A DNA stretch of 64,000 bases from positions 6,550 to 70,549 of the forward strand of contig JAHFSX010000020.1 in NCBI GenBank assembly GCA_023269675.1, written 5' to 3'. This document shows, piece by piece, positions 1-53,185 of the stretch. The position numbers and the translations under genes are program-made. This DNA comes from Verrucomicrobiota bacterium (GTDB lineage: Bacteria > Verrucomicrobiota > Kiritimatiellia > RFP12 > UBA1067). Position 1 is the first letter of the stretch; every line of letters starts with the position of its first letter. Below the pieces are notes generated by a model, which ran no database searches, was not told the origin of the DNA, and was given only the letters and a program-made list of their open reading frames with translations.

Positions 1-237
1 CATGATTGTTGTATGCGATGCAAGTTGCTCTTGAACTTGCTCAAACGCTCCGATTTGTCTGTGAAACTCTCCAATAAACTCAGCCCCAAAATCGGGATAT
101 GGATATGAAAGAACGCCCGATATTTCGTCAATGCGACAGGGGACGTTGGACAGAGATACAGACAACCCTTGAAAGTTGCCTCGAAGTGTTCCAAGAGTCG
201 TCGACTGCCATTTCCGTTTTTCAAATAATCCGAACAT
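1..237 (-). CDS. Hypothetical protein, N-terminal 79 codons only (runs off left edge)
   Basis: Own translation of minus strand: ATG at 237-235, open to position 1 (MFGLFEKRKWQSTTLGTLRGNFQGLSVSL...). Absent from ORF track because there is no stop in the window. Lies in a low-GC block. Confidence 0.35.
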   Translation of the reverse strand, partial: MFGLFEKRKWQSTTLGTLRGNFQGLSVSLSNVPCRIDEISGVLSYPYPDFGAEFIGEFHRQIGAFEQVQEQLASHTTIM

Positions 238-275
238 TGTTCTTATCCCTAACGTTGGTGGTGGGGGACGGCGCG

Positions 276-785
276 TCAGCGACGTTCCTCTCCAGCATCT
301 GGTTCGCTATTTGTTGTGTTCGGTCTTAGTTGTCGGTGTTCTCTCTCTAATCGGGCTTTGAGCGTGTATGCCTCATCTCGGGGGTATTTGCCTGTCAAAG
401 GGGTGTGCCAGAATCTGCCAGACGCATGCCGAGGGTTCCCCGTAATGTCATCTCGATGGTATGAATGCGTCAATTTAGAAGCGACATTTGTACCTACAAA
501 TATAGCAGCAGCGACAATACCTCTCAGCAACCATGGGTGACCCCGAAACACCCACGGCAGACTTGCAGTTAGAACGCCAGTGGTAACAATAACGCTCAGC
601 GGTGTACCTCCTTCATCGCATTTGTGCGAACCACACATGAACATGGTGAACGCGGTGAGGGTGAACAGCATGACTGAACTTACGGTCAATGCCATTAATC
701 CAGACGACCGCTGAATATGCGATGTCGCAACGACCAAAATGAAACTGGTCCAAAGGATGAGTAACATTATAAAGAACATTGGCAT
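276..785 (-). CDS. Hypothetical integral membrane protein (about 4 TM helices)
   Basis: 169-aa ORF with hydrophobic stretches MFFIMLLILWTSFILVVA, LMALTVSSVMLFTLTAFTMFM, VIVTTGVLTASLPWVF and IVAAAIFVGTNVA. Same strand and low-GC block as its neighbours. Confidence 0.5.
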   Translation of the reverse strand: MPMFFIMLLILWTSFILVVATSHIQRSSGLMALTVSSVMLFTLTAFTMFMCGSHKCDEGGTPLSVIVTTGVLTASLPWVFRGHPWLLRGIVAAAIFVGTNVASKLTHSYHRDDITGNPRHASGRFWHTPLTGKYPRDEAYTLKARLEREHRQLRPNTTNSEPDAGEERR

Positions 786-812
786 TTTGAATTTCGATCT
801 TTCAAGTTTTGT

Positions 813-873
813 GGCGAACGTCGGGAATCACCTGTGAGTACTCGAAACAGGTGCATTCCCTTGTTCGCCTTTT
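813..873. other. Long imperfect hairpin between lipoprotein and membrane-protein genes
   Basis: GGCGAAC-gtc-GGGAATCACCTGT-11 nt-ACAGGTGCATTCCC-tt-GTTCGCC, followed by TTTT on the + strand. Confidence 0.4.
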
Positions 874-915
874 GGTTGCTCTATTGTTGGACATGTCTCA
901 CTGTTTGGGCAGAAA

Positions 916-1326
916 CTACTCTCCATCGCTCGCTTGATTCGATACCGCGTTTGTCGCCGGGGTGAAGAAACGGGTCAAATCTTTCTCTGAAGCATCCAAA
1001 AGATACCGAACGTCTGGAATATCGAGGAGTCCGTTTTCGTTTTGCCAGACAGATTGCTCCGGCGATCGTCTCAAAAGGACGCGCCCATTCCACGTGGCTT
1101 CCCAGTGATTCGGGATGTTGTGCTCAATCTCCACGAAGGCTGTGACATACTCGTTCGTTCCGCGTTTGAATAGTGCAAGATCGCGAATGTTGTATACTCT
1201 AACACCCCACTTGCCAAGAATGATCCTCTCTACAGAGGGGGCAAGTTTGACGCAGCTCCGTTGATAAGGCGTCGTCTCGCATCCAGTCAGGATGACGATA
1301 AACAGCATTGCCAGCAGTTGTTTCAT
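916..1326 (-). CDS. Hypothetical lipoprotein
   Basis: 136 aa. N-terminus MKQLLAMLFIVILTGC is a signal peptide with lipobox L-T-G-C. GAGGA sits 6 nt upstream of the ATG. Confidence 0.7.
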   Translation of the reverse strand: MKQLLAMLFIVILTGCETTPYQRSCVKLAPSVERIILGKWGVRVYNIRDLALFKRGTNEYVTAFVEIEHNIPNHWEATWNGRVLLRRSPEQSVWQNENGLLDIPDVRYLLDASEKDLTRFFTPATNAVSNQASDGE

Positions 1327-2133
1327 TCCTTGTCCTCAAAATGGGGCGAACGTTTTCTGGCTGGCTGAGCCAATTGCTGGCTACTGGATCGACCATGCAT
1401 CGACTTTTTCACATATCGGTTCACAAATCAAGTCGTATATGATGCGCGGCATCATGTCCTGACACAATTCATGCTGTTTCCCTATATCAGGGACCTGCGG
1501 CCTAACATGAGACCGGGACGGCCCCGGCTTCGCGGATACGCTCAGCCGGGGCCGTTTTGCATGCTGCGCATGGTGCGCCCCGCGCGTCCCTTCGGGGATC
1601 GGCACAGGCTTTTCGCATTCCGCTCAAAACCCCCGTCACCAAGGCCGGCACGATACACCGCCGTGTCCGCCTCCTCAGCCGCTCCCGGAACCCGACGCCG
1701 CGCCGGTTGCAGCGGTCACGCCAACGCTTCGGCTACTCGCGCCGGGCGGGTACGCCCTTTGTCATGCCCGTTGCCGACGGCGCGCCTGATCGGCAGGCGT
1801 CCGGTCATCCGTTCCTCCTGCCCGGACGCTTCCCCGTTCCCCAGGGTCCCGTCCGCGCCCTCACCGTCCTGTCTGCAATCTCGTGGCTTACAACGCAACT
1901 GCCCTGTCCTTTAGCCATCATCGCGAATACACAGGCGAGGATGATGGCGAAAGGAAGGGCAGCGTTATGAGTCAGCCACTTTACAGATTGCAGAGCAGGG
2001 CCGGTTTGAGTTCGGCGTCCACCGCGGCGGGTGCCGCGAGTGAGGAATCCGGACTCAGTCAGAGCAGACGTTTTGTCACACCTTCCCTGCCCCCGGCTCC
2101 ATCGTCGCCGCCATCCCCCGCTTTCCCTCTCCC

Positions 2134-2160
2134 ATCATGTGAATCATGTAAATCATGTCA
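2134..2160 (+). repeat. Three perfect tandem 9-mers ATCATGTNA upstream of the first gene of the + operon
   Basis: ATCATGTGA ATCATGTAA ATCATGTCA. The last copy ends 25 nt before the ATG at 2186. Confidence 0.9.
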
Positions 2161-2185
2161 AATAACCCCAGAAAGGACCGCCACC

Positions 2186-2473
2186 ATGAACAGCTACGCC
2201 GAAACCACCCTGCGCGCCCTCGCCGCACAGACCCGCCGCACACCCTACGAGATCCAGACCCTTCTGGCGCTCATCGCCCAGCGCGACGCCGAGACCGTCC
2301 CCGAAGGCCGCAAATACGCCCTCGCCAACGGAGGAGAGCCCGCGACCGAAGCGGAACTGACCTACCTCGCCCGCCTCTGCCGCAACTGCCCGCCCATCCC
2401 CGTTGACCGCCCGCCCGATCCGGCCGACTTCAACGACTGGGAAGCCCGCTGCCCCCACGCCGACCACCTCTGA
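2186..2473 (+). CDS. Hypothetical small protein (95 aa)
   Basis: Internal ATG of ORF 1883..2473, preceded by cAGAAAGGaCCGCCaccATG, the same SD context as downstream genes. Third-position GC becomes very high only from 2186 onward. Confidence 0.65.
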   Translation: MNSYAETTLRALAAQTRRTPYEIQTLLALIAQRDAETVPEGRKYALANGGEPATEAELTYLARLCRNCPPIPVDRPPDPADFNDWEARCPHADHL

Positions 2474-2479
2474 CACCCA

Positions 2480-2520
2480 GCGCCCGCCCGTGGGCCAGGT
2501 ACGCGGGCAGAAAGGCCACC
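2480..2520 (+). repeat. Intercistronic hairpin+SD unit, copy R1
   Basis: GCGCCCGCCCGTGGGCcaggtACGCGGGCAGAAAGGCCACC-ATG. Stem GCCCGC/GCGGGC. Starts 6 nt after the upstream TGA. Confidence 0.85.
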
Positions 2521-2724
2521 ATGAACACCATGCTCACCACCCTCGGAGCGCAAGCCGAATTCACCCAGACATGGAACGCCCTGCAGGCTTGGCTGGAGGA
2601 AGTCAACATGCTCGCCCACCGGCACCACCCGAACCGGACCCAAACGCTGGAAGCCGTCAGCATCTCCAAGCACCTGCTCGACAAGCTGGGCAACCAGATC
2701 GACCAAGCCATCACCGCCGACTGA
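2521..2724 (+). CDS. Hypothetical small protein (67 aa)
   Basis: ORF track. High GC3. Preceded by R1 SD. Confidence 0.7.
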   Translation: MNTMLTTLGAQAEFTQTWNALQAWLEEVNMLAHRHHPNRTQTLEAVSISKHLLDKLGNQIDQAITAD

Positions 2725-2728
2725 TCCC

Positions 2729-2770
2729 GGCGCCCGCCCGTGGGCATCGTTCGCGGGCAGAAAGGCCGCC
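2729..2770 (+). repeat. Intercistronic hairpin+SD unit, copy R2
   Basis: GGCGCCCGCCCGTGGGCatcgtTCGCGGGCAGAAAGGCCGCC-ATG. Confidence 0.85.
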
Positions 2771-3157
2771 ATGAAAAAGAGACAGCACACCGTCACCCTG
2801 CCGCCCGCCGAGCCCGAGATCCCCGCCGTCGAACTCGAATCCGCGACGACCCAGCCCGACCGGCACGAGACCGCCACCCGCGAGGAAGCCATGCTGATCG
2901 CCCTCGACTTCGTGCGCAGCTACGCCAACCACTGGGAACAGCCCGCCGCCGAGATCATCACCACCTTCGCGCAGACGGAAGGCGGATACTGCGGCACCGG
3001 CGTCAGCTACGCCTACAAACGCCGCGGCTTCTTCGTGGGCACCTTCGTCACCCTCAGCAAACCCGAGGAAATCCCCGGCGTGTTTTTCTTCCCGTGGGCC
3101 GAAGTCAAAGCCGCCGCCCTCACCGGAGCCGTCCAAGGCGAATTCAACCTCAGGTGA
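2771..3157 (+). CDS. Hypothetical protein (128 aa)
   Basis: ORF track. High GC3. Its first ~17 codons are duplicated at 4583. Confidence 0.7.
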   Translation: MKKRQHTVTLPPAEPEIPAVELESATTQPDRHETATREEAMLIALDFVRSYANHWEQPAAEIITTFAQTEGGYCGTGVSYAYKRRGFFVGTFVTLSKPEEIPGVFFFPWAEVKAAALTGAVQGEFNLR

Positions 3158-3159
3158 CT

Positions 3160-3191
3160 GAGCGCCCGCCCCCGGGCAGACCGGAGCCGCC
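3160..3191 (+). repeat. Intercistronic hairpin+SD unit, shortened variant R3
   Basis: GAGCGCCCGCCCCCGGGCAGACCGGAGCCGCC-ATG. Stem GCCCG/CGGGC. Confidence 0.7.
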
Positions 3192-3737
3192 ATGAAACAC
3201 ACCAACCAAGAGCAAAAGGCGATCGAAGCCGCACGCGCCGCCGAGGATCTTCCCGACGCCGAATATGACGCGATCCGCAAGACCCCAAGCCAACAGCGCA
3301 CCATCCCCCAGCGCCGCGCCCTGCTGGCAAGCGACCTGAAACGCGCCGGCCAGACGTTCGAGGACCGGGAACGCTCCAACGACCTTTACCGCCACTACCT
3401 GAAGACCGGCGACCGCGCCGAGGCCCGCTGGCATGCCCCTTCCCCGCTCCTGACCTCGACCGCCGCGATCCGCCGCGAACTGGTGGAAGCCTGGAAAGAC
3501 CTGACCCAGTTCGACGCTATGCCCTTCGCCCCCCACGTCAGCCATGAACCCAAACGCTGGCTCAAGTCCGAACGCTTTCACCGCCTCATGGAGATCCAGC
3601 GCGAGATCGAGCGCCAAGGCGGAAAAGTGCGGTATGTCCAACGCACCACCCGACAGGAAGCCATCTACGCCCGCATCATCGCTAGCGACCAACCCAAGAA
3701 CAAACACGAACCCCAGCAGATACCGCTGGGCATCTGA
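3192..3737 (+). CDS. Hypothetical protein (181 aa)
   Basis: ORF track. High GC3. Operon context. Confidence 0.7.
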   Translation: MKHTNQEQKAIEAARAAEDLPDAEYDAIRKTPSQQRTIPQRRALLASDLKRAGQTFEDRERSNDLYRHYLKTGDRAEARWHAPSPLLTSTAAIRRELVEAWKDLTQFDAMPFAPHVSHEPKRWLKSERFHRLMEIQREIERQGGKVRYVQRTTRQEAIYARIIASDQPKNKHEPQQIPLGI

Positions 3738-3749
3738 AAGGAAACGACC

Positions 3750-3944
3750 ATGAACGCGATCATCAGTTATTACTCCTACAGTGAGGAAGGACTGAAAAAC
3801 GGGTCCTTCGCCAGCCGCTCGAAATACGGCCTCGGCCTGTTCACCCTGGGCGACTTCGTGGGCATGATCGAGACCGTGCCCGCAGGCTGGACCCAATACG
3901 ACACGGCCACCGCCCAGAGCCTCATCCCCGATTGCTGCCACTGA
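3750..3944 (+). CDS. Hypothetical small protein (64 aa)
   Basis: ORF track. GAAAGGAAACGACC-ATG SD context 12 nt after the previous stop. Confidence 0.6.
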   Translation: MNAIISYYSYSEEGLKNGSFASRSKYGLGLFTLGDFVGMIETVPAGWTQYDTATAQSLIPDCCH

Positions 3945-3949
3945 AAACC

Positions 3950-3980
3950 GACGCCCGCCCGTGGGCATCGTACGCGGGCC
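3950..3980 (+). repeat. Intercistronic hairpin unit R5 (no intact downstream gene)
   Basis: GACGCCCGCCCGTGGGCatcgtACGCGGGC, then a divergent sequence and a C10 tract. Confidence 0.8.
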
Positions 3981-4010
3981 GTCCCGTTATGTCCGTTCAT
4001 CCCCCCCCCC

Positions 4011-4040
4011 AAAAATCCGGCGCGCCCGCGGGGGCGCGCC
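4011..4040 (-). terminator. Rho-independent terminator of the Cys-rich gene
   Basis: GGCGCGCCC-gcgg-GGGCGCGCC 9-bp GC stem, followed on the minus strand by GGATTTTT. Confidence 0.65.
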
Positions 4041-4095
4041 GATCAACCCCGCCGCTCGTCGCGCTAACGTCTCGCGCCGGGTCCCGGCAAACGAT

Positions 4096-4332
4096 TCAAA
4101 GCCCGTGTTTTTTGTAAAGCTCAAGCCGCGTGGGGCACTTGCAGTAACGGGCGCCTCCGAAGGACTCCCTGTAAGGACACCGCGAGCCGGCCGGGCATTT
4201 GATGAAAAGGAGCTCCTTTCCGACATAATAATCGACCGTGCAGATGCATTTCCCGTCGCCCTTAAGGCACGCGAAATCCTTGTCACATCGCGTCGTCGCC
4301 CGCAAAGCCTGTTCGCTCACCTCGATGGCCAT
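4096..4332 (-). CDS. Small cysteine-rich protein (78 aa, 8 Cys), probably metal-binding
   Basis: MAIEVSEQALRATTRCDKDFACLKGDGKCICTVDYYVGKELLFIKCPAGSRCPYRESFGGARYCKCPTRLELYKKHGL. Has an SD-like GGGGGTG, plus its own promoter and terminator. Confidence 0.7.
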   Translation of the reverse strand: MAIEVSEQALRATTRCDKDFACLKGDGKCICTVDYYVGKELLFIKCPAGSRCPYRESFGGARYCKCPTRLELYKKHGL

Positions 4333-4434
4333 AAATCACCCCCGTCAATCACGAGTACAACAACATGTCTGGGCATTGATGTATCTGCAAACCAGAGGCT
4401 CAAAAAACCTGATTTAACCATATGTTTGGCATGT

Positions 4435-4462
4435 ATTATGCGGGGGGGGGTAAAATTGTCAA
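4435..4462 (-). promoter_or_regulatory. Sigma-70-like promoter TTGACA-N16-CATAAT with a C9 tract in the spacer
   Basis: Minus strand reads TTGACA(4462-4457)-attttaCCCCCCCCCg-CATAAT(4440-4435), about 100 nt upstream of the ATG at 4332. Confidence 0.6.
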
Positions 4463-4538
4463 CGGCTTATTTTATACGCCAAGTGCCTGATCGACAAGAA
4501 AGGCGAGTCGCGCGACAACGCCGCGCGGCAGCAAAGCC

Positions 4539-4582
4539 CCGCGCCCGACCGTGGGCCGGGTACGCGGGCAGATCGGACCGCC
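4539..4582 (+). repeat. Intercistronic hairpin+SD unit, copy R6
   Basis: CCGCGCCCGACCGTGGGCcgggtACGCGGGCAGATCGGACCGCC-ATG. Confidence 0.8.
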
Positions 4583-4738
4583 ATGAAAAAGAGACAGCAC
4601 ACCGTCACCCTGCCGGCAGTCGAGCCCGAGCCCGCCCTTTCTTTTCGCCCCCCAAAACGGTGCGCCTGCAGGGGTTCGCCATACTCGTTTGGATGGCTTA
4701 TAAACAGGTTATGCGCACACACACCAGAAGTAAACTAG
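4583..4738 (+). pseudogene. Truncated duplicate of the 5' end of gene 2771..3157
   Basis: ATGAAAAAGAGACAGCACACCGTCACCCTGCCG is identical to 2771-2803 (MKKRQHTVTLP). It diverges after ~17 codons and stops after 51 codons. Confidence 0.6.
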
Positions 4739-4814
4739 TTCTTGCCGGAAGACTGACCTCGAGTAAGTTTGTCTTCAACACCGGTATCTCTTAGGTTATG
4801 TTAAGTAATAGAAA

Positions 4815-5231
4815 TCAAGAAAAGGTGAACAATGCGTTCGAACTGCTTCCACAGATTTTCAACTCCAAGTTTTTAAGAAAATTCATTCCCAAGATCATAG
4901 AGTTGTTTGCCATTTTTACATTAGCAGGAGGGCCAAACTGCACACTTCCATTAACCCAATATATCTTTTTATGGCCAACGAACCTGCTGACAGCAAAAAG
5001 CACATCAATGCTATTCGACCCATTATTAGGCGATGGTAAACCGACCACGCCAGCCCATTGTGTCTGAATATGGTTATACGGAGTACAAGAAAAAAAAACC
5101 GTTTCTTGAAAGTAACTAACGGCAACAGGTTTTGACGTGTTATATGTGCTTGGAAGACAGGCGATACTCAATCGTATAGGAGCAATAGTATATTCGCTAG
5201 TCCTTAAATTCACACTCAACTTTTTAAACAT
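4815..5231 (-). CDS. Hypothetical protein (138 aa), second gene of low-GC cassette; possible degenerate retropepsin-like fold
   Basis: Start chosen at MFKKLSV because of GGAGAGAACG-ATG. The C-terminal motif ILGMNFL resembles the (I/L)LG(M/R)(D/N)(F/L)L motif of clan AA aspartic peptidases. No D(T/S)G triplet is seen. Confidence 0.55.
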   Translation of the reverse strand: MFKKLSVNLRTSEYTIAPIRLSIACLPSTYNTSKPVAVSYFQETVFFSCTPYNHIQTQWAGVVGLPSPNNGSNSIDVLFAVSRFVGHKKIYWVNGSVQFGPPANVKMANNSMILGMNFLKNLELKICGSSSNALFTFS

Positions 5232-5275
5232 CGTTCTCTCCGATTCCCGCCACGCCAACACCCCAGAATAATACC

Positions 5276-6232
5276 TTAAAGACCAGCATTCGTTACGTAA
5301 CAATCTTTGGTTGGTTTCAATTCTGTTCTGTCCAACTTAATAAATAATTGGCTCCAATCGGGCGCAGATTCTATGATACCCGCTTCCGTTACTGCTACGA
5401 CACTACCCTGATATTTTTTACATATGTCTTTCGTCCGATTACGTTGCCACCATAAAGCACCCATATCCGCAGGAGAGTGTTGGTCAAAAAAGACTCCATT
5501 AAATGATGAGTCAGTTCTCCATTCATCAAAGTCACTCAGGGAAGTCGCTATGTGACCGTCTGCCATTTGTTTAATCTGTGATGCGTAAAAAAGCGCTATC
5601 GATTTTCGCGAGGAAACAAAAACGCGACGTCTGATAGCTTGTTGTTCTTGGTGGTCTTCTTCGAAAGACAACTCGGCCGTCATTTTCTCGTCTTTAGTAA
5701 AGATTACCGATACAAAGTGTAAGGGCTCTCGGTCGCCGATGTTGATAACAACGCCTTTATCTGGGTGAGATAGCAATTTTTCTGCAAACGGATTGCCAGC
5801 AGCATCTTTCATGATCCTGGTCGAAGATGTAACAAGAAATCTGAATGAAGGTTCACTCAGACGTTCTTCGATCAGTTGAAGCGCCCTCTTTGTAAGAAAA
5901 ACGTCCTTGTGGAATGAGCCCACGTTTAAGAACAGAAAACTGTTTGGCTTGGAAAGACAATTTTCAACGTAGGCGGTTCTCTCTTCAGGGCCTTCCAGTT
6001 CAATCCTCAACTCATTTCCTTCAGCGAGTTCATTCGATCGAAGCTTGGACTCAATCTTATCCCAGTCGCTATCTGTTTTTGGAGAAAGATTGATTTTCCG
6101 ACGTTCAAAAAAGACGCTATATTTTTGTGCCGATGGCTCGGTAACCCTTTTTGACGAACTTCGCTGAAGCACGCGCACAAAGCCTTCTAGCTTCTGGCGA
6201 TAACAATCGATCTCCATCATGCGTAACTCCAT
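5276..6232 (-). CDS. Hypothetical protein (318 aa), first gene of low-GC cassette
   Basis: ORF track. Strong SD GAGGAGGGAGTC-ATG. I recognise no family. Confidence 0.7.
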   Translation of the reverse strand: MELRMMEIDCYRQKLEGFVRVLQRSSSKRVTEPSAQKYSVFFERRKINLSPKTDSDWDKIESKLRSNELAEGNELRIELEGPEERTAYVENCLSKPNSFLFLNVGSFHKDVFLTKRALQLIEERLSEPSFRFLVTSSTRIMKDAAGNPFAEKLLSHPDKGVVINIGDREPLHFVSVIFTKDEKMTAELSFEEDHQEQQAIRRRVFVSSRKSIALFYASQIKQMADGHIATSLSDFDEWRTDSSFNGVFFDQHSPADMGALWWQRNRTKDICKKYQGSVVAVTEAGIIESAPDWSQLFIKLDRTELKPTKDCYVTNAGL

Positions 6233-6310
6233 GACTCCCTCCTCTCGAATTCCAGTCGCAACTATCCTAGCTGTCCTGCCGAAGAGGCAACGTCATCTTC
6301 ATGCGGGGAT

Positions 6311-6340
6311 AGAATATCCCCCCCCGTGCTTCGAATGCAA
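6311..6340 (-). promoter_or_regulatory. Sigma-70-like promoter TTGCAT-N18-TATTCT with a G8 tract in the spacer
   Basis: Minus strand reads TTTTTTTTg-TTGCAT(6340-6335)-tcgaagcacGGGGGGGGa-TATTCT(6316-6311), about 80 nt upstream of the ATG at 6232. Confidence 0.55.
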
Positions 6341-6780
6341 CAAAAAAAACCAGCTTCATAATGTTGCCCATAGATGGAAACGTGCTTATGAAGAAGTGTG
6401 TGCCGGAAATAGTGGCATTGTTGTGTAAGTCTTGTGTGGTGAGTGTTGCGGATCAACAATTGTACTGTTTAAGGCATAACAGTAGTCATAATCTCTCTCA
6501 ACATGCCGTCCCTTTCCAGACATCCTCCGCCTTATCGGCAGGCGTTATTGAGAATCTCCGATTGACAACAGAACCGTAGCAAACTTTACTCCCCTGCTTC
6601 AAGCGTATATTTTGGTGTTTTTTCCCCAGGGATTGATACCGAATTGAATAGGTGAAGTTCCTATAGGTCGGAGGGGTGGCATACAAATCTGTTGATCTGA
6701 GTAGAGGGTGATTAGGGGGACGTATCACGGAAAAACGGACAAACAGGTTAGCTAATCCGTCCTCTCCCCCCCCCATACCG

Positions 6781-6814
6781 CACTAACGCAATAACGCACT
6801 AACGAACTTCTTCC
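6781..6814 (-). repeat. AT-rich octamer array at gene 3' end (island copy 1)
   Basis: + strand CACTAACG CAATAACG CACTAACG AACTTCTTCC. Encodes the tail KKFVSALLR* of the ASCH gene. Confidence 0.85.
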
Positions 6815-7247
6815 TCACTTCCCCGTCCACCGCCCACACGCCGAGAAATCCCTTGGCCGCGACGCCCCGCGCGCACAACACCGGCCGTTCCAGCTCCCAC
6901 GCCACATCGCCCATGTACCACGGGTCGGCCGACGCGGTCAGCGCCGAAACCACATGGATACCGCACACCACCTGCCCGCACCAGGCGCGGCACTCGTCAT
7001 ACCCCGGAAAGCGCACCGCCGCGCCGAACCGGTCCGCCACCCACAGGCTGCCCGCGCACCAGTCAGAAAAGCTGAGGTTGTTGGAAGCGTGCACGAGGTA
7101 GAGGCCGGGCGGCACGCGGAAACTCCGGTTCTCCACCGTCTTCAGCCCCGCCCGGATCAGCAGGCCCCAATGCGCCTTCACCGTGAACGCCCGTAGTCCT
7201 TTCCGCTCGAAGTTCGGCGTCCGGCGTTGAATGTCCGACGTTCGCAT
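6783..7247 (-). CDS. ASCH-domain protein (154 aa)
   Basis: LRAFTVKAHWGLLIRAGLKTVENRSFRVPPGLYLVHAS matches the ASCH pattern (xxSIRQPWAxLIxxGxKxIENRSW...IHAS). Start set at MRTSD with GGAGGGAGAGCAA-ATG. Confidence 0.75.
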   Translation of the reverse strand: MRTSDIQRRTPNFERKGLRAFTVKAHWGLLIRAGLKTVENRSFRVPPGLYLVHASNNLSFSDWCAGSLWVADRFGAAVRFPGYDECRAWCGQVVCGIHVVSALTASADPWYMGDVAWELERPVLCARGVAAKGFLGVWAVDGEVRKKFVSALLR

Positions 7248-7497
7248 TTGCTCTCCCTCCGTCCCCAGCCGTTTGAATGTTGCCGATTGCCGATTGCTGA
7301 TTGCTGTCCTCCGTCCTCTGTCCTCCGTCTTCACTCCCCATCCCGTCCGACTGATCGACGCCGCGCCAGTCCTTTTCCCAACAAACGCACGCCGCATCAC
7401 TCGCCTCTATCAACCTTTCGCCGCGCGGCAGGCACATCCCCGCCGGCCACATCGCCCCGCACGAGCAGAACGACCCGCACTCGCGGCAAAGTTTCAT
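7063..7497 (-). CDS. Possible small Cys-rich ORF (MKLCRECGSFCSCG...); extent uncertain
   Basis: ATG lies 13 nt after the stop of 7511..7864. The N-terminal 45 aa look protein-like. The ORF then crosses heptamer repeats and overlaps the ASCH gene out of frame by 185 nt. Confidence 0.25.
   Translation of the reverse strand: MKLCRECGSFCSCGAMWPAGMCLPRGERLIEASDAACVCWEKDWRGVDQSDGMGSEDGGQRTEDSNQQSAIGNIQTAGDGGRANANVGHSTPDAELRAERTTGVHGEGALGPADPGGAEDGGEPEFPRAARPLPRARFQQPQLF
7282..7333. repeat. Two adjacent tandem heptamer arrays
   Basis: GCCGATT GCCGATT GCTGATT, then GCTGTCCTCC GTCCTCT GTCCTCC GTCTTCA. The minus strand reads GGAGGAC-like SD repeats. Confidence 0.8.
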
Positions 7498-7510
7498 AAC
7501 GGCACCGTCA

Positions 7511-7864
7511 CTATGAAATCGAGTCGAAGAAGTCGGCTGACCGCTTGGCCTCTTTCATCTTTTTGCCGCCGAGCGGCATGAGACCGCTGTTCTGCAAAAG
7601 CCAGACAAGGCCGACATTCAACTCTTGCGTATAGAAGTGCGCGAAAGCTTCGCCACGCTCCGCCGCCCGCTCTTCAAATTTCCGGTTACAGGATTCTTTG
7701 CAGGTAATGAATGGTTCAAACGTGTCTCCAACCTTGTCGCCGCCGGTAGGGGGGAACCACACTATATCGGCTTCTTTCGCGTCCGTGACGTGCCTGCCGC
7801 ACACATCGCATACGGCCGCCAGACCGGTTTTCCCGGACGCAAAAAACATCATCTTGATTCCCAT
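7511..7864 (-). CDS. Hypothetical protein (117 aa)
   Basis: ORF track. High GC3. Contains a CDVCG...CKESC motif. Confidence 0.6.
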   Translation of the reverse strand: MGIKMMFFASGKTGLAAVCDVCGRHVTDAKEADIVWFPPTGGDKVGDTFEPFITCKESCNRKFEERAAERGEAFAHFYTQELNVGLVWLLQNSGLMPLGGKKMKEAKRSADFFDSIS

Positions 7865-7893
7865 AACTCACATCGTTCCTTTCATTCTGAGCT

Positions 7894-8301
7894 TCACTCA
7901 GGCCGCTCCACATAGTAGTCAACGCCCTCGCGCAGACTACAGACCACTGGTGGCAACCGGACCGACTCGCAAAACAGCACCACAGCCGCCACGCACCGCC
8001 GCAACACCTCATGATCCTGATGCTCTCCCTCGACGGTCGCCACCACGCTTGCGCGTGTGGCAAACAGCCACGCGTCCGGAATTGCTACACCTGCCGCCTG
8101 TGCCCGATACAGGTTGTGCGGCCGTGTGCAGAGATCCAGCCAGCGCGCCACCGGTTCATCGACCTCCCGCGCGCAGACCGCCGCCCGCTCATAAAGCTCC
8201 CGGTCCATCCGCACTTTCGTGTGCCGCTCCACCCGTCGCACGGCCAGCGCCCGTTCGATCATTTCGCGCGAAGTGATCCCCTTGAGTCTTTTCGCCTTCA
8301 A
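7894..8301 (-). CDS. Hypothetical protein (135 aa, TTG start)
   Basis: ORF track. GGAGGACGGCGAAT-TTG. Confidence 0.6.
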   Translation of the reverse strand: MKAKRLKGITSREMIERALAVRRVERHTKVRMDRELYERAAVCAREVDEPVARWLDLCTRPHNLYRAQAAGVAIPDAWLFATRASVVATVEGEHQDHEVLRRCVAAVVLFCESVRLPPVVCSLREGVDYYVERPE

Positions 8302-8346
8302 ATTCGCCGTCCTCCGGCCTCAGTCTTCTGACCTCATCCCTCTCCC

Positions 8347-8386
8347 CACTAATGCACTAATGAACTGACGAACTAATGAACTTCTC
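8347..8386 (-). repeat. AT-rich octamer array at gene 3' end (island copy 2)
   Basis: CACTAATG CACTAATG AACTGACG AACTAATG AACTTCTC. The stop of 8373..8600 lies inside it. Confidence 0.9.
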
Positions 8387-8600
8387 TCGCCTTCCCCTGC
8401 AGATCCACCGCAAACCGGCCCTTGGCCAGCGTCAGAAAAACGTCCGGCTCGCAGTTGCAGACCTGACCGGAATTCACGGCGCACCAGAAATCATGCTGCA
8501 CATGACAGTCGCTTTTCCGGTCGAGGCAAGAAACGTCGAACACCTGCCGAAAACCGAGGACCATCCGTTCCTGATACGATAACCGCGTTTTAACAGACAT
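8373..8600 (-). CDS. Hypothetical small protein (75 aa)
   Basis: ORF track. GAAAGGAGTACGGCG-ATG. Ends ...EVH*. Confidence 0.6.
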   Translation of the reverse strand: MSVKTRLSYQERMVLGFRQVFDVSCLDRKSDCHVQHDFWCAVNSGQVCNCEPDVFLTLAKGRFAVDLQGKAREVH

Positions 8601-8643
8601 CGCCGTACTCCTTTCGCTGTCTTCCGTCCTCCGTCCCTAATCC

Positions 8644-8683
8644 CACTAATGCACTAATGAACTAACGGACTAAGGAACTTCCC
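8644..8683 (-). repeat. AT-rich octamer array at gene 3' end (island copy 3)
   Basis: CACTAATG CACTAATG AACTAACG GACTAAGG AACTTCCC. Confidence 0.9.
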
Positions 8684-8804
8684 ACTTCTCTTTCTCCGGA
8701 TCGTCCGCCTCGACTCCGGTCTCGCCTCTGAACGCCCACCATGTCCGTCCCGCCGCTACGGCGATCAAGCACACGAGCCACACGAAATCGGCAACAGTTC
8801 TCAC
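8670..8804 (-). CDS. Possible 44-aa single-TM peptide (GTG start)
   Basis: Own translation: VRTVADFVWLVCLIAVAAGRTWWAFRGETGVEADDPEKEKWEVP*, with AAGGAG 11 nt upstream. Preferred over the Arg-rich track ORF 8662..8856. Confidence 0.35.
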   Translation of the reverse strand: MRTVADFVWLVCLIAVAAGRTWWAFRGETGVEADDPEKEKWEVP

Positions 8805-8853
8805 GGGCGTTCAATCTCCTTCGCGTCTTAGCGCCTTCGCGATAGACACCTCC

Positions 8854-8893
8854 CACTAATGCACCAATGAACTAACGAACTAATGAACTTCTC
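8854..8893 (-). repeat. AT-rich octamer array at gene 3' end (island copy 4)
   Basis: CACTAATG CACCAATG AACTAACG AACTAATG AACTTCTC. Confidence 0.9.
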
Positions 8894-9227
8894 CCCCCCG
8901 TTTCAAATAACACATGTGCCAGATCGGATGATAATTACCGGCCGCCTCGTCGCCGTCCAGCAGCACCACCAGCCGCCCGGAACGGCCGCCCGTGATCACG
9001 CCCGGCCGGCCGTCGAACTCGACCCGCCGCCCGACCGTCGCCGGCACGCCGTAGGCGTTCCGGATATATTCGAGACCCTGCGCGGCGACCTGCGCGCGTT
9101 CACACGTTTTGCAGGTCACCTCCATATCCGAGCCGGGGACAACCACCTGGACGCCGGCCCGCGCGCGTCCGCAGAGCGTCATGCCCGCAGGGCCCGCGGC
9201 ATGGTTCACAAAACGGTAACCGCTCAT
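8880..9227 (-). CDS. Hypothetical protein (115 aa)
   Basis: Internal start MSGYRF, chosen for GGAGGTAATT-ATG. Ends ...GGEVH* inside the octamer array. Confidence 0.6.
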   Translation of the reverse strand: MSGYRFVNHAAGPAGMTLCGRARAGVQVVVPGSDMEVTCKTCERAQVAAQGLEYIRNAYGVPATVGRRVEFDGRPGVITGGRSGRLVVLLDGDEAAGNYHPIWHMCYLKRGGEVH

Positions 9228-9361
9228 AATTACCTCCTGCAGATCGGGTAAACCGCCGCGCAGGGCCGGATCGGACCTGTGAGACCGGTCCCCGCGCGGC
9301 TTTCCGGAACATCCGGAAATCAACTGCCGTCCAAGGCGTTCACCACTCTCCCGCATTGCCG

Positions 9362-9393
9362 CACTAATGAACTATGACACTAACGCCCTTCTC
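9362..9393 (-). repeat. AT-rich octamer array at gene 3' end (island copy 5, degenerate)
   Basis: CACTAATG AACTATGA CACTAACG CCCTTCTC. Confidence 0.75.
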
Positions 9394-9658
9394 CCCCGTC
9401 TCCGGCGCTCGGGACAGCCGGACCGCGCGGCAGCGGCAACGAGGAGGGGAGGGGAGCCGGCGCCTCATTCTCCAGCCATTGCCTGACATCCGCGGTGCAG
9501 AACACGACCACGGACGACCGGCTTTCCGGCACCGGCTTGCGCGCCCGGATGGCCCCGGCCCGCGCCAGTTCCAGCAGCCGGTTGCGCGGCAGCCCGTACA
9601 GCGCCGTCACGCACTCCGCCGTCCCCCACAGCGGCTCCATCTGTATCACGACGGTCAT
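9380..9658 (-). CDS. Excisionase/AlpA-like helix-turn-helix DNA-binding protein
   Basis: PLWGTAECVTALYGLPRNRLLELARAGAIRARK...VRQWLE fits the HTH_17/Xis pattern. Its start overlaps the upstream RHH stop (ATGA). Confidence 0.6.
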   Translation of the reverse strand: MTVVIQMEPLWGTAECVTALYGLPRNRLLELARAGAIRARKPVPESRSSVVVFCTADVRQWLENEAPAPLPSSLPLPRGPAVPSAGDGGEGR

Positions 9659-9846
9659 TCTGGCCCCGCGATCTGATCGATGAGATCACGCCGGGATACA
9701 AATTCGGTCAAGATGAACTCGAATTGCCCGGACCGCGACCTTTTCGCCACGAAGCGAACGTCATCAAGTGCCTTAACCAACTTCGTCGGCAAAGACACAG
9801 TGACCTGTGATTTTTCTTCACGTACCCGTTTGGTTGTCTCACTCAT
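9655..9846 (-). CDS. Ribbon-helix-helix (CopG/Arc-like) protein
   Basis: 63 aa. SQVTVSLPTKLVKALDDV is the typical RHH beta-strand/helix signature. Confidence 0.65.
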   Translation of the reverse strand: MSETTKRVREEKSQVTVSLPTKLVKALDDVRFVAKRSRSGQFEFILTEFVSRRDLIDQIAGPE

Positions 9847-9862
9847 TGGTCTAGTGTAAGTA

Positions 9863-9941
9863 ACTGTGATACAGTAATCAAATAAAATAGTTTTACCTTT
9901 TTTCTAAATACAGTACCCCAACTTCCATTAAATTTAGTACA
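9863..9941. promoter_or_regulatory. AT-rich divergent control region with repeated TACAGTA/TAGTACA boxes
   Basis: ACTGT-gat-ACAGT palindrome (9863-9875). TACAGTA at 9870-9876 and 9909-9915. TAGTACAAT at 9935-9943 resembles a -10 for the + gene. Confidence 0.45.
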
Positions 9942-9961
9942 ATAGCGCCCTCGAGGTATCT

Positions 9962-10195
9962 ATGAGCACAAAAGCAAAAAAGTCAAATACGACCCAAAGG
10001 TCGAAAGATTCCACCCAGGTCAGCATCACGTTGCCCACGGAGCTGCTCGAAAAAATCGATGCCATCTGCGCGGCCAAGGTCAGAACCAGATCCAACCTGA
10101 TGGCGATCATACTGGCACAGGCGCTCGCTCAGCCAGCAGCGCCGTCCGCCTCGGCCCCCGCGGCCGGCAACGTGGGCACCGGCGTTGGCAATTAG
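9962..10195 (+). CDS. Ribbon-helix-helix (CopG-like) protein
   Basis: 77 aa. TQVSITLPTELLEKIDAI parallels the RHH motif of 9655..9846. GAGGT SD. Confidence 0.65.
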   Translation: MSTKAKKSNTTQRSKDSTQVSITLPTELLEKIDAICAAKVRTRSNLMAIILAQALAQPAAPSASAPAAGNVGTGVGN

Positions 10196-10539
10196 TGCCT
10201 TTCAGCGCAATGTTTACACGGAACGACACTAAGTTGCTTCCGCGCGAGATCGCGGAAACAGCGTGCTGTTCCGTCCGCCAAGGAGCGGTCCGAGCGATCC
10301 CTTGTGGCTATGCGAGGCACGTTTCCCAAAACGGTCCGGGTAAAACGCCGGTCACCGGGCCCCGGCCAGGCCTCCCCGGCCGAAGTTATTTGTCGCGGGT
10401 TTTTTACCCGCGCTACCCCTCAAAACGGTATGGCAAAGGTATGACAAACAGGCTTCAAATATATCAAATCGGTACTGAAAAACGTCACTTTTTGACGCTT
10501 TTTCATCAAAAAAACCTCATTTTTGGTCAAAAACGCGCC

Positions 10540-10572
10540 TTGTCGCGGGTTCGAATCCCGTCCTCCCCGCCA
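10540..10572 (+). other. Orphan tRNA/tmRNA 3'-end fragment (T-arm, acceptor 3' strand, CCA); putative attR
   Basis: GCGGG-TTCGAAT-CCCGT-CCTCCCC-G-CCA. The same architecture as a tmRNA/tRNA 3' end. No complementary GGGGAGG 5' acceptor strand or other tRNA arms upstream. Confidence 0.7.
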
Positions 10573-10586
10573 TTCTTTTTTTAGAA

Positions 10587-10618
10587 CAGGTCACCTTCAC
10601 CGGTGGCCTGTTTTTTTT
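10587..10618 (+). terminator. Rho-independent terminator after the tRNA-like fragment
   Basis: CAGGTCACC-ttcacc-GGTGGCCTG followed by T8. Confidence 0.8.
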
Positions 10619-10638
10619 GTGGCGCGCGCCGGAAGTTT

Positions 10639-10668
10639 TTGACCGGCGTCGCGGGTTGCGGGTATACT
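10639..10668 (+). promoter_or_regulatory. Sigma-70-like promoter TTGACC-N18-TATACT (uppP)
   Basis: TTGACCGGCG...GTATACTG, 15 nt upstream of the ATG at 10683. Confidence 0.5.
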
Positions 10669-10682
10669 GCACGCCACGCAAC

Positions 10683-11474
10683 ATGACTTTACTTCAAACC
10701 ACCATCATCGCCGTTGTCGAGGGCTTGACGGAATTCTTGCCCGTGTCGTCCACCGGACACATGATCATCGCCCAGAGGCTCATGGGCGTCGACGGCACGC
10801 TCGACGTGGTCAAAGCGTTCACGGTCAACATCCAGTTCGGGGCGATCCTGTCGGTCGTCGTGCTGTACCGGCGGCGCTTTTTTCAGACCTGGGATTTTTA
10901 CTGGAAACTGCTGGTCGCCTTCGTGCCGGCCGCGGTGATCGGGTTCCTGTTGAGCGGTTTCATCGACCGCCTGCTGGACAACGTGACGGTGGTGGCGCTG
11001 ATGCTGGTGGCGGGCGGCGTGTTCATGCTGTTTGTGGACCAGTGGTTCACCCGTCCCGCAGAGGACCAGGCCGTGGACTGGAAGCGGGCGCTGAAGATCG
11101 GCTGCTTCCAGTGCGTGGCCATGATCCCGGGCGTCTCGCGCTCCATGTCCACGATCGTGGGCGGGATGTCCACCGGGCTCTCGCGGCAGAACGCGGCAGA
11201 ATTCTCGTTCTTTCTGGCCGTGCCGACCATGGCGGCCGCGGCGGGGTATAAGCTGCTGAAAATCATGACTGACCCGGCCCTGAGCGCCACGGTGTCGGAC
11301 AACCTGATGACCTTGCTGATCGGCAATGGGGTGGCCTTCCTGGTGGCCCTGGCGGCGATCCGGTGCTTCATCGGCTTCCTTGCCCGACACGGCTTCAAGG
11401 CCTTCGGCTACTACCGCATTGTGGTCGGCGGCGTGATTCTGGCCCTGGTGCTGCTGGGCAAGATTCAGCGCTGA
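10683..11474 (+). CDS. uppP: Undecaprenyl-diphosphate phosphatase
   Basis: MTLLQTTIIAVVEGLTEFLPVSSTGHMII... and ...PGVSRSMSTIVGG are BacA/UppP signatures. Multi-TM. Confidence 0.9.
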   Translation: MTLLQTTIIAVVEGLTEFLPVSSTGHMIIAQRLMGVDGTLDVVKAFTVNIQFGAILSVVVLYRRRFFQTWDFYWKLLVAFVPAAVIGFLLSGFIDRLLDNVTVVALMLVAGGVFMLFVDQWFTRPAEDQAVDWKRALKIGCFQCVAMIPGVSRSMSTIVGGMSTGLSRQNAAEFSFFLAVPTMAAAAGYKLLKIMTDPALSATVSDNLMTLLIGNGVAFLVALAAIRCFIGFLARHGFKAFGYYRIVVGGVILALVLLGKIQR

Positions 11475-11519
11475 CCGAAGGGTTTTTCGCGCGGCCGCCG
11501 ACGGAGCCAAAACTCCACA

Positions 11520-11549
11520 TTGACCGGCGGGGGTGGAAAGCTCTATACT
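11520..11549 (+). promoter_or_regulatory. Sigma-70-like promoter TTGACC-N18-TATACT (rpoZ-smpB)
   Basis: TTGACCGGCG...CTATACTG. Same hexamers as the uppP promoter. Confidence 0.5.
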
Positions 11550-11577
11550 GTCTCGCTTAACCCTTGGAGGCATTTCT

Positions 11578-11823
11578 GTGAATGTTGAACTGATTGAGAA
11601 GGCGAGAGTCCGGGTCCCCAGCGTTCCGGTGCTCGTGAATCTTGTTTCGAAACGCGTGCGTCAGCTCAATATGGGTGAGAGGCCTTACGTGAAACCGTTG
11701 TCGGCCGATGAGGACAAGTGCGACATCGCGCTGCGCGAGATCGCCGACGGTCTGCTCATTTCCGAGGTTGATTTCGGCGCCATCGCGCGGGCCGAGCAGG
11801 CGCATTCGCGCTGGTCGCTGTAA
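11578..11823 (+). CDS. rpoZ: DNA-directed RNA polymerase subunit omega
   Basis: GTG start after GGAGGCATTTCT. VLVNLVSKRVRQLNMGERPYV...DIALREIADGLL fits the RpoZ pattern. Confidence 0.75.
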   Translation: MNVELIEKARVRVPSVPVLVNLVSKRVRQLNMGERPYVKPLSADEDKCDIALREIADGLLISEVDFGAIARAEQAHSRWSL

Positions 11824-11859
11824 TGTGATTCTGCGCGGCAGGCGCAGGGCGGGCGGGTC

Positions 11860-12342
11860 ATGAGCGAGGAGAGCAAAAAACGCAACGGCGGCAATCTGAC
11901 GGTCAACCGCAGGGCGCTGCACGATTATTTTGTTCTCGAGAAGTACGAGGCCGGCATCGAGCTGGTGGGTACCGAGGTGAAGGTGGTGCGTAACGGCGAG
12001 GCCGGGTTGACCGGCTCCTACGCCCAGGTGAAGAACGGACAGCTCTACCTGAATCAGGTGATGATCCCGCCTTACGCCTTCGGCAACCGCTTCAACCATG
12101 ACTCGCTGCGGACGCGGCGCCTGCTGATGCACACGCGGGAGATCCGCAAGCTGCAGGCGCAGTCGGAGCAGAAGGGGCTGTCGCTGATACCGTTGAGGAT
12201 GTACCTGACTCCAAAAGGTCTGGTCAAAGTGGAGATCGGGGTCTGCCGGGGCAAAGCCCAGGAAGACAAACGCGAGACCATCAAGCGGAGGGACGCGGAC
12301 CTTGAGGCCCGCCGGGCGATTGTGACACACTATAAAGGGTGA
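11860..12342 (+). CDS. smpB: SsrA-binding protein
   Basis: NRRALHDYFVLEKYEAGIELVGTEVKVVR...RTRRLLMHTREIRKL...GLSLIPLRMYL is canonical SmpB. Confidence 0.93.
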   Translation: MSEESKKRNGGNLTVNRRALHDYFVLEKYEAGIELVGTEVKVVRNGEAGLTGSYAQVKNGQLYLNQVMIPPYAFGNRFNHDSLRTRRLLMHTREIRKLQAQSEQKGLSLIPLRMYLTPKGLVKVEIGVCRGKAQEDKRETIKRRDADLEARRAIVTHYKG

Positions 12343-53110: not shown

Positions 53111-53185
53111 TATTTAATGTGTATACGTGAAAGAGCTGTTATAAACAGAATAGACATTAAATGCCTGTTACTGGTACATTTAATG
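53111..53185. promoter_or_regulatory. Three copies of YATTTAATGY in an AT-rich divergent region (candidate activator binding sites)
   Basis: TATTTAATGT at 53111-53120, ACATTAAATG (inverted) at 53154-53163, and ACATTTAATG at 53176-53185. Confidence 0.4.

Follow-up and report, generated by a model that had tools for sequence, protein, structure and literature searches.

A putative σ70-type promoter with a C9 run in its spacer, in front of a moron-like gene for a small cysteine-rich protein on a prophage-like island of an uncultured Kiritimatiellia bacterium

Could an accessory gene of a prophage-like element be tuned by slippage of a homopolymer that lies between the two hexamers of its own promoter? 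This question is raised by the minus strand at 4462..4435 of the window, as the whole stretch of 64,000 nucleotides analysed here is called, which reads TTGACA-attttaCCCCCCCCCg-CATAAT with a spacer that, read directly, measures 16 nt. The original prediction of a TTGACA-N16-CATAAT promoter with a C9 tract was confirmed letter by letter, the -35 hexamer being perfect, the -10 hexamer matching in five of six positions and the C run making up 9 of the 16 spacer nucleotides; the distance to the ATG at 4332, put at about 100 nt, is 102 nt when counted from the -10 hexamer. Since the C9 run lies wholly between TTGACA and CATAAT, its length sets the spacing of the two hexamers. The coordinates of this and the other features are collected in Table 1.

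Table 1. Positions of the features discussed, in window coordinates
Feature	Position	Strand	Remark
-35 hexamer TTGACA	4457..4462	-	6/6 consensus
Spacer attttaCCCCCCCCCg, 16 nt	4441..4456	-	contains the C9 run, plus-strand G9 at 4442-4450
-10 hexamer CATAAT	4435..4440	-	5/6 consensus
A/T-rich, UP-element-like stretch gcgtataaaataagccg	4463..4500	-	upstream of the -35 hexamer; the inserted unit ends here on its right side
Weaker overlapping promoter-like site TTGTCG-N17-TAAAAT	4497..4469	-	within the A/T-rich upstream stretch
Overlapping opposite-strand promoter-like site TTGGCA-N19-TAAAAT	4426..4456	+	same G9 run in its spacer
Predicted leader, about 95 nt	4333..4428	-	SD-like GGGGGTG inside
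Gene for a 78-aa protein with 8 Cys, large uncharacterised family	4096..4332	-	
Intrinsic terminator	4011..4042	-	11-bp stem at 4042..4017, 10 G-C pairs, 4-nt loop, ATTTTT tail
Left flanking D3 element	3952..3979	+	only window copy without SD and ATG after it; the inverted unit begins here instead
Right flanking D3 element	4542..4569	+	followed by SD and ATG 4583
C10 run (minus-strand G10)	4001-4010	+	after the T tail of the terminator, near the left unit junction; no promoter-like context
G9 run (minus-strand C9)	4442-4450	+	spacer of TTGACA-N16-CATAAT
C8 run	6318-6325	+	spacer of TTGCAT-N18-TATTCT
C9 run	6766-6774	+	no promoter-like context
Companion site TTGCAT-N18(G8)-TATTCT	6311..6340	-	7/12 match; 79 nt upstream of ATG 6232 of a 318-aa gene
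tRNA/tmRNA-like 3' end fragment GTCGCGGGTTCGAATCCCGTCCTCCCCGCCA, 31 nt	10542..10572	+	T arm, acceptor strand and CCA; no complete gene

How much weight does such a match carry? No other site in the 64 kb reaches a σ70 match of 11/12, for which 0.05 sites are expected, and at the lower threshold of at least 10/12 four matches were observed versus 0.63 expected (expected promoter-match counts are from first-order Markov simulations, per 64-kb window). A consensus scan of positions 1-12000 returned 10 promoter-like sites (4.6 ± 2.1 expected) and ranked 4462..4435 first with 11/12. The DNA around the site is poor in G and C, positions 4333-4500 having a GC content of 43.5% as compared to 65% for the whole window. 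Reading 4462..4435 as a genuine-looking σ70-type promoter is thereby supported.

Would the host recognise these hexamers? In the chromosomal part of the window TTGACC-N18-TATACT occurs at 10639 (10639-10668, plus strand), ending 14 nt before uppP/BacA, and again at 11520, ending 28 nt before rpoZ. A relative with 90% SmpB identity, represented by three contigs, retains both hexamers upstream of rpoZ at the same distance of 18 nt, but its spacer sequence has diverged, and this footprint supports E. coli-like recognition of -35 and -10 elements in the lineage. The preferred spacing in the lineage is suggested to be 17-18 nt, and since a spacer of 18 nt separates the hexamers of both top-ranking housekeeping promoters of the window, the C9 allele with its 16 nt is probably sub-maximal. 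A further promoter-like site at 53151-53180 (plus strand) ends 6 nt before the start codon of a 489-aa gene; the gaps of 14 nt (uppP) and 6 nt (489-aa gene) hint at mRNAs of this organism that have no leader or a very short one.

What would such a promoter transcribe? Translation of the open reading frame can begin only at the ATG at 4332, because a stop codon lies two codons upstream, and this ATG is preceded at a distance of 4 nt by the SD-like GGGGGTG (4343..4337). GC content is 0.71 at third codon positions as compared to 0.52 and 0.48 at first and second positions, the skew of a real gene. A word-index search with the 78-aa protein found no homologue and the family surfaced only in a full HMMER scan, which returned 925 cluster representatives (50% identity) at E ≤ 1e-3, nearly all of them about 78 aa long. 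In the family alignment C16, C22, C31, C64, C66 and R69 are invariant and C52, Y54 and P67 nearly so, and the AlphaFold model is confident (pLDDT 84, pTM 0.71). A Foldseek comparison of this model with the PDB gave no match; Pfam, NCBIfam, PHROGs and a PDB sequence search gave no assignment, and IMG/VR contains no close relative. Judged from its sequence, the frame is a real gene for a small conserved 8-Cys protein. The gene had also been credited with a terminator of its own, and a strong intrinsic terminator, an 11-bp G+C hairpin followed by ATTTTT, is indeed found behind it; the T run is only 5 nt long and is followed by G10. A match to the Rfam family Xoo2 (E 0.1) was rejected as merely this terminator hairpin. 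The fold predicted for the leader is no more stable than that of shuffled sequence, and Rfam has no family matching the leader.

The annotation of the source contig misses the 78-aa gene and instead places a 277-aa open reading frame on the opposite strand (3961..4794) across the whole unit. This frame is a singleton without GC3 skew and is regarded as spurious; because it was called over the unit, the 78-aa gene and its promoter are invisible in the public record. Named members of the family come from metagenome-assembled genomes of Candidatus Methanoperedens, Nitrospiraceae and Syntrophaceae and thus from archaea and bacteria. On two Methanoperedens contigs the family gene lies downstream of an exosome/L37ae cluster, with RpoP in between on one of the two. 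The product of the window's gene is probably cytoplasmic, since a hydrophobic N-terminal stretch is absent as judged by eye, and it is probably not one of the surface or restriction-type targets usual for contingency loci. A homologue of the gene also occurs in the P0195 loci (L004-L011), which have identical upstream sequence starting at GTAGTTACTAAGAAGC; beyond GTAGTTACTAAGAAGC at least three different contexts are found, suggesting a small mobile cassette. Where the contigs are long enough (L004-L006) this homologue is accompanied by two small convergent genes. Kinship between the convergent 64-aa genes found with the homologue in L004 and in the window was considered and rejected, the two being unrelated.

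Which kind of genetic element carries the gene? The unit, at about 3980-4500, has a GC content of 56% as compared to 65% in its left and 71% in its right flank, consists of a single gene with its own putative promoter and factor-independent terminator, and is inverted between two D3 phage-type gene-start elements (3952 and 4542). Morons of lambdoid and HK97-type phages are reportedly extra transcription units. Prophage morons are, like this unit, single extra genes with their own σ70 promoter and terminator, located between phage genes and deviating in base composition. Because it combines a single gene, its own promoter and terminator, an inverted position between phage gene starts and a foreign composition, the unit is taken as a putative prophage moron, and it fits the definition in that both the position between phage genes and the deviant GC content are found. 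What defines a classic moron is its absence from sister phages, whereas this unit is assigned from its own sequence. To our knowledge a slippery tract in the promoter is not usual in descriptions of morons.

The D3 element is a 28-nt sequence, CGCCCGCCCGTGGGC-nnn-GTACGCGGGC, often preceded by TAACGCCGCCcGAtCATTTCAA, and occurs on the plus strand of the window in four copies (2481-2508, 2731-2758, 3952-3979 and 4542-4569). At 21 nt past the copy at 3952 begin the C10 run, the terminator and the 78-aa gene in opposite orientation. Behind the copy at 4542 a 53-nt duplication with 94% identity (4578-4630 versus 2766-2818, plus strand) takes in the SD and codons 1-16 of a 128-aa gene (2771), and the open reading frame starting at ATG 4583 is truncated where the similarity to the 2771 gene stops, after about 4630, at the edge of low-GC DNA. 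An exact-pattern scan of IMG/VR found D3 in 23 viral contigs (L018-L040) with GC contents of 41-64%, and a mismatch-tolerant count gave 36 copies in the 194 kb of these contigs. Across the 40 copies from the window and the IMG/VR contigs D3 is nearly invariant, and nearly all copies are followed by an SD and start codon within 0-3 nt, the exceptions being three of the 40 (window 3952, L021 and L036). The proteins flanking D3 in the viral contigs are unrelated to those of the island, save for one match of 46%. In L022 and L025 D3 begins right after a TATAAT or CATAAT -10 hexamer and therefore seems to be an mRNA 5' or intercistronic element, candidate roles being a processing site, a 5' stabiliser or a translational operator. 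No Rfam family corresponds to D3 and the sequence was not found in the literature searched; readings as a σ54 or an ECF-type promoter were rejected by eye for misfit of the spacing. One of the D3-bearing viral contigs (L028, 8684-10813, minus strand) carries a reverse transcriptase beside a bAvd-like gene, that is a diversity-generating retroelement, and also an NlpC/P60-SH3 lysin.

These elements belong to a lower-GC island of ORFans that extends from position 1 to about 10530. Encoded just upstream of the window, on the source contig, are an HTH_17 protein and a helicase of the DnaB type; at its right end the island encodes an RHH protein and has an HTH_17 match that is weak (18 bits, under the Pfam cut-off of 27), and two island proteins match PHROG families. 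The tRNA/tmRNA-like fragment has a weak Rfam tmRNA match (positions 346-363, E 0.08) and a partial direct repeat at 10390-10418, and lies 1.3 kb upstream of smpB with uppP and rpoZ in between; it probably represents what is left of the att site where the island ends on the right. The setting on a mobile element, part of the original prediction, is borne out by D3, the PHROG matches, the DnaB/HTH_17 pair and this att-like fragment, and a mobile, prophage-like element integrated in a Kiritimatiellia chromosome is accordingly the supported reading. 'Prophage-like' is the safe term, since the window contains no structural phage genes. BLAST of positions 3700-5300 against phage and plasmid collections gave no match, and the island proteins checked are all singletons at 90% identity. 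Outside the island SmpB (gene at 11860) shares 88-93% identity with proteins of Kiritimatiellae/Kiritimatiellia metagenome-assembled genomes, and the chromosomal genes from about 12.9 kb on are typical of the PVC group. The relative with 90% SmpB identity has a different synteny upstream of rpoZ, so that it does not reveal an empty attachment site.

How could the C9 run act in this setting? At the level of sequence the promoter, leader, SD, gene and terminator, the moron setting and the C9 run that sets the spacing are all in place. The account that we favour, with moderate confidence, is that of a σ70-type moron promoter in which a C9 run prone to slippage sets the distance between the hexamers. 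RNA polymerase with the primary sigma factor of the host would bind TTGACA and CATAAT and transcribe the 78-aa gene independently of the phage operons. The run would be long enough to slip at replication, giving rise to sub-populations with C8, C10 and C11, and by simple arithmetic C8, C9, C10 and C11 correspond to spacers of 15, 16, 17 and 18 nt. Cells would consequently differ in expression in a heritable and reversible manner, and because the spacers range from 15 to 18 nt, slippage would grade expression in the manner of a rheostat and not act as a clean ON/OFF switch. A phase-variable promoter of this type is a reasonable hypothesis of the textbook kind, new only in host and context.

Precedents for such a control are well known. 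In porA (poly-G), opc (poly-C) and fetA (poly-C) of N. meningitidis a G/C run is likewise situated between -35 and -10 and its length sets the spacer. In these genes the tract length sets sigma-factor binding, and the outcome is graded, with high, medium and no expression (PMC2791445, with its references to Sarkari 1994 and van der Ende 1995). The meningococcal genes differ from the C9 site in that tract polymorphism and effects on expression are proven and in that they encode surface proteins of a host-adapted pathogen, whereas the C9 site, at which no length polymorphism was seen, belongs to an uncultured Kiritimatiellia bacterium and precedes the gene of a small, probably cytoplasmic Cys-rich protein in a prophage-like island. 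A second parallel is hifA/hifB of H. influenzae, for which TA repeats in the overlapping spacers of divergent promoters are described (van Ham 1993, cited in PMC2791445). The C9 site resembles this arrangement, as one run lies in the spacers of TTGACA-N16-CATAAT on the minus and TTGGCA-N19-TAAAAT on the plus strand. The hif repeat differs in being a dinucleotide repeat and in that both promoters share one optimal length; the spacers of the C9 site differ by 3 nt, and the optima of its two promoters would therefore be reciprocal. Unlike its counterpart in hif, the plus-strand TTGGCA-N19-TAAAAT is a mere sequence match and leads into a truncated gene. In Bordetella fim2 and fim3 a C-stretch separates the binding site of the activator BvgA from the -10 element, and in the vlp genes of Mycoplasma hyorhinis a poly-A tract lies in the promoter; both systems control surface structures. 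They are like the C9 site in that a homopolymer in the promoter region sets the spacing of elements, and there transcription is phase-variable. If the C9 run slips, promoter-spacer phase variation would extend from a few host-adapted pathogens to an accessory gene of a prophage in an uncultured member of the Kiritimatiellia, and stochastic tuning of moron expression would be suggested as a general strategy of temperate elements.

Is the run exceptional within its surroundings? The window has four G/C runs of 8 nt or longer, which all fall within 4001-6774 and outside credible genes. Between 3900 and 6900 these four runs compare with 0.07 expected in simulations, and the three runs of at least 9 nt with 0.03. 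The 53 kb of chromosomal sequence (10531-64000), in contrast, contain no G/C run of at least 8 nt versus 3.75 expected and 15 runs of at least 6 nt versus 44. Chromosomal depletion together with the cluster in the island argues that the genome avoids slippery runs and that the cluster is not due to chance, and suggests selection against slippery tracts in this genome of 67% GC. A second transcription unit of the same design had been proposed nearby; a G8 run does lie in a spacer upstream of the 318-aa gene, but the promoter match itself reaches only 7/12. Of the four long runs only G9 at 4442-4450 sits within a good promoter. A repeat family has a C-rich segment to which the C9 run at 6766 can be aligned; this run may be a mutated repeat copy.

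Does the run vary in length? With 9 nt it exceeds the slip threshold of about 8 nt that was derived from deep sequencing of N. meningitidis, where homopolymers of at least 8 nt were mostly variable and the strong candidates mainly G/C runs (PMC5084427). It is possible, though we consider it doubtful, that the promoter is a real moron promoter but C9 an incidental and stable spacer sequence in a repair-proficient host, the cluster of tracts then reflecting foreign, recently acquired non-coding DNA. Such stability is hard to reconcile with the hypermutability of G/C runs of at least 8 nt wherever this was measured (PMC5084427), and the depletion of runs in the chromosome suggests that they are costly, that is mutable, in this organism as well. 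What can be compared directly agrees rather with the incidental reading. Within the searchable collections the C9 site is not covered by any second, independent assembly: no contigs came back when the 78-aa, 64-aa and 277-aa products and SmpB were looked up as exact sequences, the three products being either missing from these collections or singletons confined to the source contig (NCBI, ENA) and the 318-aa protein occurring also on a Logan contig, and a variable-gap promoter pattern gave one chance match each in the genome and the metagenome collections, located in coding sequence of Flavobacteriales. The contig versions at NCBI and ENA agree in the lengths of the C10 and G9 tracts, since the same 277-aa frame spans both tracts in each. 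The Logan contig (L001, run SRR14366756) is 100% identical over 4586-6809, with the neighbouring G9 and G8 runs unchanged, and ends short of 4442-4450. Agreement between these copies is a weak argument against variation in the consensus sequence and silent on minority alleles. An incidental run is further favoured by the lack of promoter context at two of the four long tracts, by the C9 at 6766 with its likeness to a mutated copy of the repeat family, and by the 78-aa product, which with its exosome/L37ae neighbourhood in Methanoperedens is not of the kind that is usually phase-varied.

Length variation is nevertheless found beside a relative of the gene. A homologue with 49% identity is found on four metagenome contigs, each from a different sample, and over a stretch of about 510 nt these contigs differ only by one SNP and in a poly-C run, which reads C7, C8, C8T or C9 (L012 1820-1827, L013 857-864, L014 763-769, L015 763-771). 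Variation of poly-C length in natural populations beside a homologue of the 78-aa gene speaks against an incidental, stable run. This poly-C run sits in the spacer of TTGAAT-N15-17-TATCGT and lies 45 nt downstream of the homologue; on L012 an uncalled 72-aa Cys-rich open reading frame is found about 350 nt further downstream. A scan of IMG/VR for TTGACA and TATAAT separated by a spacer with a C8-9 run gave seven perfect sites versus none for a scrambled control. With spacers of 8-26 nt permitted, all seven fall between 15 and 18 nt; all have A/T-rich upstream flanks, and in three of the seven an SD and ATG follow within about 35 nt. The scan shows that what appear to be real phage promoters can carry such C runs and implies no enrichment. 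One related pair of these sites (L048 and L051) differs as C9 versus C8T, hence by substitution and not by slippage, and the spacer length that is kept through this C-to-T change fits better with an incidental run.

Is the promoter itself a coincidence? On this reading the hexamers would be a chance consensus match in an A/T-rich junction and the 78-aa gene would be silent or transcribed by read-through, which we think improbable. From the end of the upstream gene at 4815 down to 4462 only weak terminator-like sites are present, so that read-through from the upstream minus-strand genes into the 78-aa gene may occur, and the 102 nt to the ATG compare with 14-28 nt for the two chromosomal promoter candidates. 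The 0.05 matches of this quality expected per 64 kb, the position and orientation that suit a real gene with its own terminator, and the conservation of the hexamer pair in the lineage, as seen at rpoZ, all weigh against a coincidence.

Alternatively, the runs could be junction features of cassette acquisition and the promoter a hybrid formed at such a junction. The plus-strand C10 (4001-4010) and G9 (4442-4450) bracket the terminator, gene, leader and -10 hexamer as a short inverted pair, with the -35 hexamer outside and the -10 hexamer inside the bracket, and C10 and the C9 run at 6766 lie within about 20 nt of boundaries of composition or repeats, the latter at the edge of a cassette of 44% GC. 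This 2.1-kb cassette (4631-6760) has ends that coincide with those of the independent Logan contig. Direct comparison of the flanks of C10 and G9, however, revealed no similarity beyond the runs, the unit reaches about 20 nt and about 60 nt past the two runs, and the C8 run at 6318 is internal to its cassette. In addition, no known tail-adding mechanism was found and the searches returned no related cassette, and we give an origin at junctions little credit.

A more elaborate version of phase variation would let the one G/C run toggle the two overlapping, opposed promoters (with the assembled run, 16 nt for the minus-strand and 19 nt for the plus-strand spacer) reciprocally, within a cluster of contingency loci on a prophage. 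Run lengths of 10-11 would then favour the moron and lengths of 7-8 the plus-strand start, from which transcription would cross D3 at 4542 and proceed antisense into the cassette of 44% GC. Such a toggle is a long shot; together with four long tracts in 3 kb it would, if true, amount to phase-variable lysogenic conversion outside the world of pathogens, in an environmental PVC bacterium. That the runs are a sequencing or assembly artefact, for example from poly-G in two-colour chemistry, which does occur at contig ends in such data (L020 1-49 opens with G11, G19 and G14), is very improbable, as the runs are 8-10 nt long, internal and far below the assembly k-mer size, two of them are exactly reproduced in the independent Logan assembly, and G runs and C runs both occur on the same strand.

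Other repeats of the island deserve mention. Arrays with an 8-nt period (CACTAATG / AACTAACG) are found on the plus strand at 6780-6812, 8346-8386, 8643-8683, 8853-8893 and 9361-9393, after each minus-strand gene of the island, where they overlap conserved C-terminal codons (..EVH*). By eye they appear to put stop codons in all frames of both strands; IMG/VR contains no exact match to them. Just before the first plus-strand gene of the island (ATG 2186), three tandem 9-mers ATCATGT(G/A/C)A occupy 2134-2160 on the plus strand. A promoter-like TTGACA-N16-CATGAT at 2161..2134 is disfavoured, as it is the reverse complement of these three 9-mers (ATCATGTNA). The tandem 9-mers look like operators or iterons, and an operator is more likely here than a promoter.
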